Part shown: positions 88 to 17,065 of the stretch, piece by piece | Layout of the letters: each line of letters opens with the position of its first letter | How positions within the stretch are numbered: position 1 is the stretch's first letter | NCBI GenBank assembly: GCA_041862235.1 | Contig: JBGVSY010000006.1 | Coordinates: forward strand, 21,597 to 41,596 | Direction: 5' to 3' | Length of the DNA: 20,000 bases | From: Nitrososphaeria archaeon | GTDB lineage: Archaea; Thermoproteota; Nitrososphaeria_A; Caldarchaeales; JAVZCJ01 | Notes under the pieces: model-generated | Told to the model about the DNA's origin: nothing | The model's input: only the letters and a program-made list of their open reading frames with translations | Database searches by the model: none | Translations under genes and position numbers: made by a program

Positions 88-424
88 CTCGTCTTGGTGG
101 CGACAGTTCCCTTGGATCGATGCATACAGGTCTCGTTCTTGCCCTGGTTCGCTCCTCCGACGTGCTGATCACGGAGCGCCGCTGCCTCGCCTTAGGGCTG
201 CTCGCTCCCGCGCCTAACCCGATTCGGCGGGTAGGAGGCATCTTGACCTTCCCTACGGAAGACAAGTGTCTTTACATCGGCCCCTGTGGGCACGCGTTCA
301 CAGGAGCTGGCCAAGATGGGATCGAGGTGCATACATCTCTCCTCAGGTTGCTGACCCCCGCATTATGTCCCATTTCGGGTTCAGGGAAGGGCTGGCTCCC
401 CGGTCCTACCTGTCGCCACCGACG
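88..424 (-). ncRNA. Archaeal signal recognition particle RNA (7S/SRP RNA)
   Basis: Minus strand. The S-domain helix 8 signature is GGUUAGG-CGC-GGGA-GCG-AGCAGCC-CUAAG (GNRA tetraloop plus AGCAG asymmetric loop side), with adjacent helix 6 ACCCG-CCGAAU-CGGGU. The Alu-like 5' domain reads UAGGACCGGGGAGCCAGCCC..CCCUGAACCCGAAAUGGGACAUAAUGCGGGGGUCAGCAACC. The termini pair perfectly over 11 bp (GGUGGCGACAG near 420-410 with CUGUCGCCACC at 106-96). A TATA-like TTTAAAT lies just upstream. Exact ends are approximate. Confidence 0.9.
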
Positions 425-5462: not shown

Positions 5463-6644
5463 TCAAAGGTCGCCTGTCGTCATGATTTTGACCTTTGAGG
5501 GTTTCTTGGAGATTTCTCCTATTCTGGCGCCTATCAGGTAGAGCTCGTCGTTGCGCGTAGCCGCTAAGTCGATTAGTCTCTGGGTGACTACGCCGTCGAA
5601 AACCACGTACTTCGCGTTACTCATTTCTCCCAGCTTTTTCGCCAGCTCGCTAACCGGGGTTCTTGAGACCTCATCGAGGTTTTTGTCGTAGACCATGGCG
5701 AGAAGGCTTCCCTCCAAGGATTTAGCGGTCTCCACCAACTTCTGGGGGATACCAGGTTTGACTTCCTTGACCGGCGCTGCCTTCATCGCTTTCTTCAACT
5801 CCTTCACGGCGACAGCTTTCTCTAGGGCTTCCTCCATTTCGCGTTTGGTCAGTTCCTCGACTTCTTTTCCCTGAGGTGCACGGGCTACGTAGTCGATTTT
5901 GCTCTTCATCAGAAGCTCTTTGAGGATCAGGTCCCCCCCGTGGTCTCCATCTAGGAAGGCGGTTACCTTCTGCTTCCTGTGGGTGATCTCTTCGATGGTC
6001 TTAGGTACCTGAACGCCCTCCACCGCTATGGCGTTGTTGTATCCATACTTGAGAAGGTTGTTCACGTCTGCTCTGCCTTCGACCACTAGTAGATCTTGGC
6101 TTTCGTTCACGGTTGGCCCGGCTGGAAGCTTGTCAGGTCCGTACTCAATGACCCTGGCCTTGACCAATGCCTGTTCGATCTGGCGGAACACGGCGTCGTC
6201 TGTCGGTATCTTCTGCTGCTCCCAATCGTACAGAATCTCCTTAGCTCGCTTAGTGATCCTCTGTCTCTTCTCGACTCTCGCGTCTTCAATTTTCTCAATG
6301 GTGACCTTTGAGCCATAAGGCCCTACCCTGTCGACGCTTTCTATGATAGCCGCTACCAGAGCTGTCGTCGATCTGTCGAGGCTCGTTGGAACAACTACTT
6401 TTCCTTCGGTCTTCTTGCCTTGGGTCTTGACCTTTATCTCTATCCTTCCTATCCGGCCTGATTTCTGGAGGTCCCTGAGATCGAGCTCCGAGCTGAAGAT
6501 ACCCTCAGTTTAGCCTGTATGATGTGTTGCACATCCACACATTTGGCCGAAGAGAGCACCAACAACATCGGGTTTTTCGACAGGGCCATCCACATCTATC
6601 TTTGCATGAATTATGTACTTTGTAACTGGTTGACCAAACGTCAC
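5463..6644 (-). CDS. dnaG: Archaeal DnaG-like primase (Toprim), interrupted by a putative 33-nt intron at 6510-6542
   Basis: Exon 1 (GTG at 6644 down to 6543, 34 codons) encodes [34 protein letters not shown]. Exon 2 (6509 down to 5463) encodes [31 protein letters not shown]...[29 protein letters not shown]...[12 protein letters not shown]. Joined, these give a contiguous DnaG of 382 aa. The GAGGTGA Shine-Dalgarno overlaps the stop of the upstream gene. The ORF track only begins at 6191 because the in-frame TAA in the intron (6512-6510) is followed by about 106 codons with no ATG, GTG or TTG. Confidence 0.88.
6510..6542 (-). other. Putative archaeal BHB-type mRNA intron within dnaG (33 nt)
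   Basis: Minus-strand RNA is ...GGCCAA|AUGUGUGGAUGUGCAACACAUCAUACAGGCUAA|ACUGAGGG... The central 4-bp helix is GGCC (exon) with GGCU (intron). Each side is followed by a 3-nt AAA bulge cut AA|A. The inner helix is UGUGU(g)GAUGUG-CAA-CACAUCAUACA. Removal restores GGC CAA ACU GAG GGU = G Q T E G. The outer helix is imperfect (CUCUU/GAGGG after a 1x2 offset). Confidence 0.8.
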
Positions 6645-6650
6645 ACACAA

Positions 6651-7052
6651 TCACCTCTTGATTCTCTTTGCGAAATAAGGGTCTATGCTCTCAATCTCAT
6701 GCACACCGTTTCTGACAAGACGCTTCAGCCTTCTCCTGTAGGAAAGGTCGTGGCTAACGCCTATTTGTGAAAGGTATTTGGATATTCTCCCGCTAAGGAG
6801 TTCCCCTTCTCGATCGAAGTCTGTCAGGATAATTATCTTCCGGTTGACAAACTCCTCTGGGTTCACGGCGAGTATTTCTCTGTATCTTCTGAGTTGGATG
6901 ATACTCTTGTCTATGCCAAGGTTATTCAGGGATCTTTGGTCTCTCAATCCTTCAACTACTACCAGTGCTCCCTGCTCCGTTTCCTGCCGCAGGTCGGCTA
7001 CGATTTTCGCTACCTCTTCGTACGTGTCTTGAAGTGTCTTGTGAGTGAGCAA
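6651..7052 (-). CDS. Small Toprim-domain (primase-like) protein of the COG1658/UPF0292 type
   Basis: Toprim motifs GALVVVEGLRDQRSLNNLG and IIILTDFDREGELLSGRISKYL. It lies immediately upstream of dnaG. Confidence 0.75.
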   Translation of the reverse strand: MLTHKTLQDTYEEVAKIVADLRQETEQGALVVVEGLRDQRSLNNLGIDKSIIQLRRYREILAVNPEEFVNRKIIILTDFDREGELLSGRISKYLSQIGVSHDLSYRRRLKRLVRNGVHEIESIDPYFAKRIKR

Positions 7053-8327: not shown

Positions 8328-8391
8328 GATCGATCTGAGACGCTCTCGGTAAGCCCGGGTCGGAAAGATTCGGTGCACTCGATCGATCGCT

Positions 8392-13441: not shown

Positions 13442-14581
13442 CTAACCGATGCCTATGGTGTTGCCTATGCCAGCCAAGATTACCGTGGCTCCAGCCTCGG
13501 TCATGCCCGTGACGATCTTCTTGACCCTGTCAGCGGCTTCGTCAGCAGCCTTGGCTATGCTCTGCCTCATAGGTGTGATCGCTTCTGTCAGGGATTCGCT
13601 GATGAGCACGGCGTGTACGGGAATGCCGTATTTGTTGGCTACCTCCTCAATCCTGAACTTCTCCACACCCGTCCCACCTATAGCCACCCCCACAGCCTCG
13701 TTTATCTTGCCTGTGTCCTCACCCTCCAACTTGAGCTGTGCGTCCACGGTGATGATGAGCTGCACCTTCTTCTTCTCTCTCTCTACCAGTTTCTGTACGG
13801 CTTCTCCGGTCCTCCCAGTGGTTCCCCCTGGACCTGTTGCCCTGACTATGAGAAGCCTTCTTCCATCCAGATCCATCTCAGAGACCATTGTGTCCTTGGC
13901 TATCTCCCGTCTGTTCCTCTCTTTGTCGTGAGTGATGATCGCTGCGACCAGAGCCCCCGCACCGTCGCCGATGGGCTGCCCCTTGCCCAAGGCTGTGGAA
14001 GCTCGGCGATATGCCTCTGCTATCTCCATAATTTGAGGCATAATCATCTGGATCTGAAGCACTAGGTATATGTTCGACGTCTTCTTTCCGAGAAGATAGT
14101 AGTGCCTGACCACTCTGTACAGAGTGTTCACGGTCCGACATGCATCCAACAGGTTGGACAGGTTCTTTACTTGGTATTCCTCAGCAGCTGGGGAGATGGC
14201 CCGCACCTCCTTCTCGAACTGGTTCTCACCTATCTTCATCAGGTGGTCCAGTTTTCCAACGATCCCATAGGGATCCATAGATTCAGGGGGGATTGTGAAG
14301 AACTCCATCAACTGGTCGATCTTCTGAACAGGGTCCTCGCTGGGCTTCCCTAGCCTCTTGACTGTCTCGATTGTCCTTCCCCTAACCTCGTCTCGAATCA
14401 CCTTCAACTTAGCCAGTCTACGCTCCACGTCCATGAGAATGGTTCTCATCTGAAGCTTCTGGCTGAATCCGGGATAGAAGAGAATGAGCATCCAGGGGAT
14501 GAGCCAGACCAGGCTGATGATGAAGCTCAGCAGGTCTCCCCCGCCCGGCACCTGACCGACAAGCAACCCTGCCCAGGGCAT
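13442..14581 (-). CDS. Conserved archaeal membrane-anchored protein resembling DUF1512
   Basis: N-terminal hydrophobic segment FIISLVWLIPWMLILFYPGFSQKLQ, then a conserved-looking soluble region (GNQ/ENQF, GKGQPIGDGAGALVAA, VRATGPGGTTGRTGEAV). The ATG at 14581 is 40-47 nt from a strong TTTATAAA box; the ORF extension to 14950 runs into the 5S rRNA gene and is spurious. Confidence 0.72.
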   Translation of the reverse strand: MPWAGLLVGQVPGGGDLLSFIISLVWLIPWMLILFYPGFSQKLQMRTILMDVERRLAKLKVIRDEVRGRTIETVKRLGKPSEDPVQKIDQLMEFFTIPPESMDPYGIVGKLDHLMKIGENQFEKEVRAISPAAEEYQVKNLSNLLDACRTVNTLYRVVRHYYLLGKKTSNIYLVLQIQMIMPQIMEIAEAYRRASTALGKGQPIGDGAGALVAAIITHDKERNRREIAKDTMVSEMDLDGRRLLIVRATGPGGTTGRTGEAVQKLVEREKKKVQLIITVDAQLKLEGEDTGKINEAVGVAIGGTGVEKFRIEEVANKYGIPVHAVLISESLTEAITPMRQSIAKAADEAADRVKKIVTGMTEAGATVILAGIGNTIGIG

Positions 14582-14620
14582 CAGTTTTCCATCCTTCAGA
14601 GCGATCCCCGATTCTCTCTC

Positions 14621-14628
14621 TTTATAAA
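14621..14628 (-). promoter_or_regulatory. TATA-like box (TTTATAAA) for the DUF1512-like gene
   Basis: Minus strand GAAGGTTTATAAAGAG upstream of ATG 14581. Confidence 0.55.
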
Positions 14629-14928
14629 CCTTCATTCGAAACCTGTGGATGGATATCCCGCATAGAAGCCGCCAACTCGCCAGCACCCGTCTCCAGTCAG
14701 ATGAACGCTGCCAAGGACTCTGCATAACTGTTCCAAAGATCGATATGAGGACATAGATCGATCGCTGAAGAGTAATCACAGGTATTTCAGCTGACCGACA
14801 CCGACCTTTCGTTCGCCCCAAAGCGAAGGGGCTCCACGTCAGCGGCTTGTCATGCTCGGACAACGAGTTCGGCATACATGTGTCTTTCAATTGCGGGAGT
14901 GGCTTCTCTAAGATATTGGTGATCAAGA

Positions 14929-15047
14929 GCTGCCAGCACCCAGATTTCACGTGTGGTTTCCCACCACGCTAACGCCTGGGCGAACGGAGGCTTAGCTTCC
15001 GGGATCGGACGAGACCGGGCGTTTCCCTTCGTTCTATGGCCGGCAGC
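14929..15047 (-). rRNA. 5S rRNA (stand-alone)
   Basis: The minus-strand 119-nt sequence is GCUGCCGGCCAUAGAACGAAGGGAAACGCCCGGUCUCGUCCGAUCCCGGAAGCUAAGCCUCCGUUCGCCCAGGCGUUAGCGUGGUGGGAAACCACACGUGAAAUCUGGGUGCUGGCAGC. It contains the canonical CCGAUCCCGGAAGCUAAGCC core, and helix I GCUGCCGGC/GCUGGCAGC is closed with one G-U. A TATA-like TTTAAG lies about 25-30 nt upstream. Confidence 0.95.
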
Positions 15048-15077: not shown

Positions 15078-15245
15078 CCTTTGCCTCCACCGTCCTCAGT
15101 CATGTGCGAGATGGATCTCCATCAAAACGCGGTTTCATTGAACCTTGAATGGAAGAGACAAACGGGAATATTCTCCGATGAGATCCAGTCGCCCTTCTTG
15201 GGTAAGATCAATCGTTACGATCGATCGATCCTAGCTCAGCACCGC

Positions 15246-16390: not shown

Positions 16391-16480
16391 AACTACGTAT
16401 TAAGGCCTTCGATCGATCACGACAGCCATGAAGTATACAGGAAATGGGGACGGAGGGAATCCCGGCCACGCGACACGCAC

Positions 16481-16642
16481 ATGGCCTTCGAACCCTCGGC
16501 CTACGGGTCCCCCCAGCCGCTCCAGAACCTCGTCATCCCCCGAGACGTTCGGGGTCGGTTCATGGAGACCTACATTCTGGAGCCCGTCGCGGTAGACCTG
16601 TCTGCGCCACGTCCCTCGTCGTCGCTCCCCGCTCGAAAATAA
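16481..16642 (+). CDS. Possible 53-aa small protein, unknown function
   Basis: ATG-to-TAA ORF MAFEPSAYGSPQPLQNLVIPRDVRGRFMETYILEPVAVDLSAPRPSSSLPARK, with third positions mostly G/C. There is no obvious Shine-Dalgarno close to the ATG. Confidence 0.25.
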   Translation: MAFEPSAYGSPQPLQNLVIPRDVRGRFMETYILEPVAVDLSAPRPSSSLPARK

Positions 16643-16880
16643 AAACCTTTCAGCTGAAGAGGACGCGTATGGCTGACTACTTGAGCCCTACCCTTGTGCA
16701 CACACTAGTTATCCAAATCTATGTCAACAATCAAGATTGATTGGCAATAAGCCGAGAAATCGGTCTGAGAAGGACAGTCACATCACAAGCGACGACAACC
16801 TTTTTACCGCGTCTGCGACAGGCGGTTCCTCGAAATGACCGGGTGGGTTGTCTAGCTTGGTCTATGATTCCCGGCTTGGG

Positions 16881-16901
16881 TGCATCGATCTATGCTGGGA
16901 T
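16881..16901 (+). other. tRNA-Pro intron 1 (canonical position 37/38, 21 nt, BHB)
   Basis: The sequence is TGCATCGATCTATGCTGGGAT. Bulges are GG|T and AT|C, the central helix is CUUG/UGGG (one C-G plus G-U pairs), and the inner helix is GCAT/ATGC. Confidence 0.85.
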
Positions 16902-16923
16902 CCCGGGAGGTCGTGGGTTCAAA

Positions 16924-16952
16924 TCGTCGTCCGGTCTGTGGCGGCGGGAAAG
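16924..16952 (+). other. tRNA-Pro intron 2 (T-loop position about 59/60, 29 nt, relaxed BHB)
   Basis: The sequence is TCGTCGTCCGGTCTGTGGCGGCGGGAAAG, with AA|T and AG|T bulges. The central UUCA/GGAA has three pairs plus an A-G mismatch. The inner helix CGTCGTC/GGCGGCG is 7 bp. Excision rebuilds GTGGG-TTCAAAT-CCCAC. Confidence 0.82.
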
Positions 16953-17065
16953 TCCCACCCCACCCATAATCCATCGGTCTAGAAACAGGATCACCTCAGC
17001 GGAAAACTTCTCATGGGATCTATCAATCGAAGTTGGAGTCGCGATCGATCTAGTGCATCCATAGG

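Follow-up and report, generated by a model that had tools for sequence, protein, structure and literature searches.

The 20-kb window (the whole stretch of 20,000 nt that was analysed) contains, at 16841-16966 on the + strand, what is very probably, judging from its sequence, a functional tRNA-Pro(UGG) gene interrupted by introns, from an uncultured Bathyarchaeia archaeon. Three exons are separated by two short introns of the bulge-helix-bulge (BHB) type, one at the canonical position 37/38 in the anticodon loop and the other at position 59/60 in the T-loop. An initial annotation had proposed a tRNA-Pro(UGG) gene with two introns here, and direct reading found every element that it described in place.

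Organization of the tRNA-Pro(UGG) gene

The exons and introns all lie on the + strand. Exon 1 (16841..16880, tRNA positions 1-37) was delimited from the ARAGORN cloverleaf obtained after in-silico splicing and comprises the 5' strand of the acceptor stem, the D arm, the 5' strand of the anticodon stem, and the loop residues C32, U33, U34, G35, G36, and G37. This part of the locus reads GGGTGGG-TT-GTCT-AGCTTGGTCTA-TGAT-T-CCCGG-CTTGGG, in which the anticodon loop CTTGGG contains UGG and is directly followed by the 21-nt intron 1 (16881..16901, TGCATCGATCTATGCTGGGAT). Exon 2 (16902..16923, positions 38-59), placed by in-silico splicing and by the alignment of variants, begins with C38 and continues through the 3' strand of the anticodon stem, the variable region AGGUC, and the 5' strand of the T stem to the T-loop residues U54-A59 (C-CCGGG-AGGTC-GTGGG-TTCAAA). 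After the 29-nt intron 2 (16924..16952, TCGTCGTCCGGTCTGTGGCGGCGGGAAAG), exon 3 (16953..16966, positions 60-73; T-CCCAC-CCCACCC-A) provides U60, the 3' strand of the T stem (CCCAC), the 3' strand of the acceptor stem (CCCACCC), and the discriminator A73, as placed by direct reading, in-silico splicing, and variant alignment. The acceptor stem is formed by GGGTGGG (16841-16847) and CCCACCC (16959-16965), with A73 at 16966. CCA is not encoded, and the bases directly 3' of A73 are TAA.

In the DNA, the two parts of the T arm, GTGGG-TTCAAAT (16913-16924) and CCCAC (16954-16958), are 29 nt apart, a gap already pointed out in the initial annotation and confirmed in the sequence. On the exact site of the split, the annotation disagreed with itself: its drawn bulges placed it at 59/60, which we retained on the basis of BHB geometry, and its text placed it at 60/61, which we did not retain. 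Both choices give the same mature RNA because a U flanks both junctions.

Deletion of both 16881-16901 and 16924-16952 yielded a product that ARAGORN recognized as a 76-nt tRNA-Pro(tgg), with all acceptor (7/7) and T-stem (5/5) pairs formed, in agreement with the normal tRNA and perfect acceptor and T stems claimed earlier for the doubly excised form. When the T-loop insert alone was deleted, ARAGORN found the gene together with its 21-nt anticodon-loop intron unaided, and this intron is the one that had been annotated at 37/38. Direct reading of the mature tRNA identified U8, A14, G18G19, A21, U33, the anticodon U34-G35-G36, G37, and G46, as well as G53-U54-U55-C56, A57, A58, C61, the G15:C48 pair, and the discriminator A73. 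Removal of the introns leaves a canonical cloverleaf with the conserved nucleotides, as in a tRNA gene with BHB introns. In the spliced RNA, the predicted junctions are GGCUUGGG^CCCGGG between exons 1 and 2 and GGUUCAAA^UCCCAC between exons 2 and 3 (a caret marks a junction or cut site here and below). A split or circularly permuted tRNA gene was ruled out, as the exons are all on one strand, colinear and within a span of 126 nt. Group I and group II introns were set aside on size, because the inserts are only 21-29 nt long.

ARAGORN found no tRNA in the raw 20-kb window, either with or without its anticodon-intron option, and the unspliced locus gave no match to the Rfam family RF00005 at the gathering threshold or at E ≤ 10. 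Missing calls on the raw DNA are expected for a gene interrupted in the T-loop and are no evidence against a tRNA; we did not count them against this reading because the spliced form is called by ARAGORN. Standard tRNA finders miss the gene because the T-loop cannot form until the T-loop intron is gone. The earlier remark that the gene is hidden from simple inspection is borne out by both programs, which are blind to it until that insert is removed.

The initial annotation had proposed a search of the window with SPLITS. In our SPLITS-like blind scan, every deletion of 12-50 nt was considered on both strands of the whole window, those allowing at least three of four pairs (≥3/4) in both the central and the inner BHB helix were kept, and each product was passed to ARAGORN. 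Among about 29,000 candidate deletions, tRNA calls were obtained at the tRNA-Pro locus only, with the canonical solution "cut after 16923, length 29". Two neighbouring deletions at the same locus (27 and 31 nt) were also called, but with abnormal T-loops. The same scan of eight dinucleotide-preserving shuffled windows gave no proper tRNA (0), and one of them produced a defective "tRNA-???" with a 2-nt anticodon. This defective call and the enlargement of the search space by free deletions would be the grounds for a chance resemblance, in which two arbitrary deletions happen to yield a cloverleaf in non-tRNA sequence. That explanation has a negligible probability in our estimate: so many candidate deletions match one locus only, the shuffles lack proper tRNAs, and the locus is conserved in independent metagenomes, with constraint specific to its exons, which together effectively refute it. 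In addition, the same deletion scan on all loci compared in this study detected no further hidden tRNA, finding tRNA-Pro only.

Structure of the splice sites

Both splice junctions can be drawn as BHB motifs, the substrate of the archaeal splicing endonuclease, with the predicted cut in each 3-nt bulge between its second and third bases. Direct reading reproduced the bulges of the initial annotation as drawn. Intron 1 has a strict 3-4-3 hBHBh' geometry, in line with the good geometry claimed for this junction, and a weak central helix. Its outer helix h is the 5-bp anticodon stem CCCGG/CCGGG, and its central helix H pairs C32U33U34G35 with UGGG through one G-C and three G·U pairs. The 5' bulge is G36-G37^U and the 3' bulge is A-U^C38, and the inner helix h' (GCAU/AUGC) closes a 6-nt loop. 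Intron 2 likewise has a 3-4-3 geometry, with one A·G mismatch. Its outer helix is the 5-bp T stem GUGGG/CCCAC, and its central helix pairs U54U55C56A57 with GGAA through 3 bp plus the A57·G mismatch, the relaxed UUCA/GGAA helix that had been described at this junction. The bulges are A58-A59^U on the 5' side and A-G^U60 on the 3' side, and the inner helix CGUCGUC/GGCGGCG has 7 bp. As modelled, the two junctions show the 3-nt bulges and the 4-bp helix, or its relaxed form, of BHB introns.

Minimum-energy folding did not reproduce the BHB motifs. The BHB fold of the anticodon arm has an energy of -8.9 kcal/mol, versus -15.9 kcal/mol for an alternative hairpin, and that of the T arm has -14.8 kcal/mol, versus -19.1 kcal/mol for its alternative. 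Both whole-gene folds (RNAfold and RNAalifold) recovered the acceptor and T stems and the intron 2 hairpin. The RNAalifold consensus of eight variants contained the acceptor, D, anticodon, and T stems and one hairpin per intron.

The two folding programs also pair the first base of intron 2 in a U·G pair, rather than forming A57·G, which gives a 3-bp helix and an AAA bulge. This raises the question of whether the tRNA is real and its T-loop insert is not cut at the proposed sites, being kept as an expanded T-arm or cut in a different register; one such register would combine a 3-bp central helix with an A57-A59 bulge. The mismatch in the central helix, present in seven of the eight variants, could be read in the same way. 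However, excision of 29 nt alone restores the 7-nt loop UUCAAAU with U54, U55, C56, A58, and G53-C61, whereas deletions of 27 or 31 nt do not give normal loops. Furthermore, in the related loci L010 and L013, a G to U substitution opposite A57 abolishes the alternative U·G pair and lets A57 pair with U, giving a perfect 4-bp central helix. In vitro cleavage of a relaxed 59/60 intron has also been demonstrated for another archaeon (PMC3239211). We therefore consider a different fate of the T-loop insert very unlikely and retain excision at 59/60.

For this gene, we propose that transcription would proceed from the conserved TATA-like element about 35-41 nt upstream, and that RNase P and RNase Z would trim the ends. 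Both BHB motifs would be cut by the archaeal splicing endonuclease EndA; because the T-loop motif is slightly relaxed, this EndA is presumably of broad specificity, such as the (αβ)2 enzyme, a type reported mainly in archaea of the TACK superphylum, defined there to include Bathyarchaeota (PMC7714728). An RtcB-type ligase would join the exons and circularize the introns, and CCA would be added post-transcriptionally. The T-loop of the precursor would be blocked from forming until its intron is removed. No gene for a splicing endonuclease of the (αβ)2 or ε2 type or for an RtcB-type ligase was found in the 20-kb window.

Variation among relatives and comparison with known introns

The identical 126-nt gene is present in the NCBI MAG GCA_041862275.1 (contig JBGVSZ010000043.1) and in a Logan contig of SRR29975709, and the identical pre-tRNA also occurs on a JGI contig. 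On a JGI contig whose EamA protein is 82% identical, the orthologous tRNA gene is 151 nt long, compared to 126 nt in the window. Nine more contigs were retrieved from metagenomes with a 22-nt exon pattern, and the resulting total of eight distinct gene sequences was aligned. The window and the loci L001, L002, L011, L015, and L027 have the two-intron form, and L003-5, L010, L012-14, L016, and L018 have a three-intron form.

All eight variants encode the same mature tRNA, with position 16 in the D-loop (C or A) as the sole difference. All 22 columns of exon 2 (22/22) and all of exon 3 are invariant. One of 76 exon columns is variable, compared to 19 of 75 intron columns (Fisher p = 6e-6), a difference to be read with the fact that most relatives were retrieved by the 22-nt exon pattern, which biases exon conservation; without the 22 pattern-fixed columns, the exon-versus-intron difference has p = 1.4e-4. 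Constraint on the exons is much stronger than that on the introns and flanks.

The introns vary in a manner consistent with the proposed structure. Across the eight variants, 96.9% of the cells in this structure are paired, as opposed to 41-54% when the partners are slid by 1-3 columns; the helices of intron 1 are 97-100% paired and the inner helix of intron 2 is 95% paired. Hairpin loops or bulges account for 8 of the 19 variable intron columns. For example, the first base of intron 1, which is the third base of its bulge, occurs as all four nucleotides among the relatives, and the last base of the 45/46 intron occurs as three. In the intron helices, most changes replace U·G by C-G (columns 112 and 115). 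The inner helix is extended by two further changes, a G-C in place of C·U at columns 117/124 and an A-U at columns 118/123 in L012. In L012, an A to G substitution opposite U54 retains a wobble pair (U54·G). Two substitutions break pairs in intron helices, at column 53 (L011) and column 126 (L012). Among the eight variants, no double-sided compensatory change is kept in the tested structure, and strict covariation is missing because the sequences are too close. The support for the structure is of the kind "consistent and better than slid controls", as judged from these alignments, and not covariation proof.

These patterns bear on whether the gene might be a decaying pseudogene, disrupted by two insertions and left unprocessed while an intact copy elsewhere does the job. 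The failure of ARAGORN and Rfam on the raw sequence and the fact that the BHB folds are not of minimum energy would fit such decay, and another copy could lie beyond the sequence searched. In a decaying gene, however, one would not look for exons that are essentially frozen in eight variants while introns and flanks diverge, for inserts that retain BHB geometry and helix pairing, or for a conserved promoter-like block upstream. Moreover, a single gene per anticodon is usually predicted in archaeal genomes (PMC4307357). Decay is thus highly improbable, and we continue with a functional, spliced tRNA-Pro(UGG) gene.

What sets the three-intron form apart is an extra segment of 25 nt at 45/46 in the variable region, AG^ACTTCCGTGGTAGCGGAAGCCCAAA^GTC, which splits exon 2. 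An example is L003:1588-1738, and the same arrangement is found in L004, L005, L010, L012, L013, L014, L016, and L018. The 25-nt indel (AG^A...AA^G) can be placed in one way only, as a shift of one base to either side alters the flanking sequence, and its ends are exactly the cut sites given by the BHB rule. The lineage therefore offers a natural indel in which an intron appears or disappears exactly at BHB-rule cuts. The bulges of the 45/46 motif are A44-G45^A and A-A^G46, its inner helix is CUUCCG/CGGAAG, and its central helix pairs G41-G43 with CCC plus a C·A mismatch. It is a relaxed motif of the HBh' type whose central helix overlaps the 3' strand of the anticodon stem. Because it borrows this strand, the 45/46 motif competes with the intron 1 motif, and on these models the competition suggests alternative or sequential folding. 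Ordered removal of introns in other archaea is noted in the tRNAscan-SE 2.0 paper (PMC8450103).

The existence of sister populations with two or three introns raises the tentative idea, which we hold with less than even confidence, that this Bathyarchaeia lineage is actively turning over tRNA introns. If so, comparison of very close relatives could date the gain or loss of introns, and if other tRNA genes behave alike, Bathyarchaeia would be an intron-rich clade besides Thermoproteales, Thaumarchaeota, and Aigarchaeota. Searches with all three intron sequences found no second copies in roughly 180 kb of loci, and the sequences compared there give no sign of intron transposition.

Beyond these close relatives, a scan of the contigs of GTDB representatives with the 22-nt exon pattern gave no matches (0), so no GTDB representative has the exact exon. 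No distant ortholog was obtained, because the flanks of the HMG-CoA synthase genes (66-70% identity) in six Bathyarchaeia representatives contain neither tRNA-Pro nor a syntenic gene. EamA homologues at about 50% identity were not syntenic. A match to GGTTCAAAT in L021 was rejected as a tRNA; it is not tRNA-like, and ARAGORN found none there. Two short contigs of SRR24270827 with EamA at 81% identity (L026:1-353 and L028:1-679) had no tRNA-Pro exon match anywhere, so the linkage between the tRNA and EamA is not universal even in fairly close relatives. These two contigs have in common a different conserved spacer upstream.

Non-canonical BHB introns at many positions in tRNA genes, up to three per gene, are known from Crenarchaeota and Thaumarchaeota (PMC8450103, PMC4033280, PMC6379350), and tRNAscan-SE 2.0 models such introns (PMC8450103). 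For multi-intron tRNA genes of Crenarchaeota (Thermoproteales) and Thaumarchaeota, PMC8450103 cites Sugahara 2008 and Fujishima 2010. The tRNA-Pro(UGG) gene resembles the genes of Thermoproteales and Thaumarchaeota in its colinear exons, its short BHB introns (here 21-29 nt) with one at 37/38, the number of up to three introns, and its being overlooked by tRNA finders without a model of such introns. It differs from them in its host, Bathyarchaeia. The literature that could be searched did not yield any report of tRNA introns from Bathyarchaeia, which is absence of evidence only.

The closest parallel for the position of intron 2 that we compared is ARMAN-2 (Ca. Micrarchaeum), in which pre-tRNA-Cys(GCA) has a 59/60 intron that is cut correctly in vitro by its own endonuclease, and tRNA-Pro(GGG) has introns at 53/54 and 59/60 (PMC3239211). 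The intron sites of ARMAN-2 overlap the major insertion sites of archaea with (αβ)2 enzymes (PMC3239211). Both systems have a T-loop intron at 59/60, also in a proline tRNA, with the T stem as the outer helix. However, ARMAN-2 has an ε2 endonuclease, and its tRNA-Cys motif is of the hBH type (bulge-helix-loop) with a 13-nt intron, as opposed to the 29-nt intron with both bulges and a 7-bp inner helix in the present gene. Compared to tRNA-Pro(GGG) of ARMAN-2, the second intron here is at 37/38 and not at 53/54.

A precedent for differing intron numbers is tRNA-Thr(GGU) of Caldiarchaeum subterraneum, which has either one intron (45/46) or two introns (24/25 and 45/46) in the same population (PMC3293823). 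Here, too, close genomes differ in intron number, a 45/46 intron is involved, and the mature sequence is unchanged. In the present case, however, the 45/46 intron is itself the variable one, and no tRNA fragment or recombinase-bearing element adjoins the gene in the compared loci.

Both the 59/60 intron position and tRNA genes with several introns have long been known (PMC3239211, PMC8450103), and published work on other archaea already describes close strains that differ in their number of introns. With the tRNA-Pro(UGG) gene, Bathyarchaeia would join the archaea with BHB introns in the T-loop (59/60) and the variable region (45/46), and the understanding of archaeal tRNA splicing remains unchanged. 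A practical consequence concerns annotation: without an archaeal intron-aware finder, the genome would appear to lack tRNA-Pro(UGG), which distorts inferences on completeness and codon usage for Bathyarchaeia MAGs.

Promoter, host, and genomic neighbourhood

In the 90 nt upstream of the gene, comparison of 10 distinct relatives revealed a single strongly conserved block, CGACAACCTTTTTAC (16793..16807, +). It lies about 35-48 nt upstream of the tRNA, and the flanks otherwise diverge freely. The block includes the TATA-like CTTTTTA at -41 to -35 from tRNA position 1. From its position and composition, we infer that it is a putative archaeal BRE/TATA promoter. Runs of GATCGATCGA flank the tRNA gene in the relatives.

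The gene lies in the spacer between the genes for HSP20 and the EamA transporter, which is filled by two ORFs of about 100 codons, 16444-16740 (+) and 16741-17064 (+). The former has no Pfam match, and the gene calls of the matching public contigs include neither ORF. The latter, a 107-codon ORF that runs through the tRNA gene, was regarded as spurious because no protein is called there in these contigs. Both spacer ORFs are probably not genes.

Besides those for HSP20 and EamA, the housekeeping genes of the window encode PheRS alpha and beta, Trp/TyrRS, a Pelota-like protein, an M50 peptidase, CutA1, and HMG-CoA synthase. Two small Toprim-domain ORFs, 5463-6191 (-) and 6651-7052 (-), are located near each other between the Pelota-like and Trp/TyrRS genes. 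A full-length archaeal SRP RNA (124.7 bits) was detected at 98-418 (-), and ORFs 120-569 and 266-508, which overlap it, are probably spurious. A lone 5S rRNA, adjoining neither 16S nor 23S rRNA, was found at 14928-15047 (-). In the DUF1512 gene, the longest ORF (13442-14950) runs 23 nt into the 3' end of this 5S rRNA, and its start codon is probably over-extended on account of this overlap.

The archaeal SRP RNA, the 5S rRNA, the PolD gene, and the nearest genomes all mark the host as an archaeon at the sequence level, and the neighbouring genes lead us to judge it a member of Bathyarchaeia. When compared by HMG-CoA synthase (66-70% identity), every one of the nearest species representatives is a Bathyarchaeia MAG, and one EamA homologue carries the name Bathyarchaeia. 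The exact EamA protein is encoded beside the PolD large-subunit gene on contig JBGVSZ010000043.1 of GCA_041862275.1 and is also present in the Logan contig of SRR29975709.

The window is also rich in the motif ATCGATC, usually as part of the palindrome (C)GATCGATC(G). It occurs at 27 sites, compared to 4.2 expected, and none of 200 shuffles (0/200) reached 27. Examples are found at 8382, 8677, 15220-15230, 15682, 16412, 17044, and 18049, and many sites are intergenic, near the ends of genes. One copy, at 16884-16890, is located within the intron 1 hairpin. The motif could be a regulatory or methylation-related palindrome.
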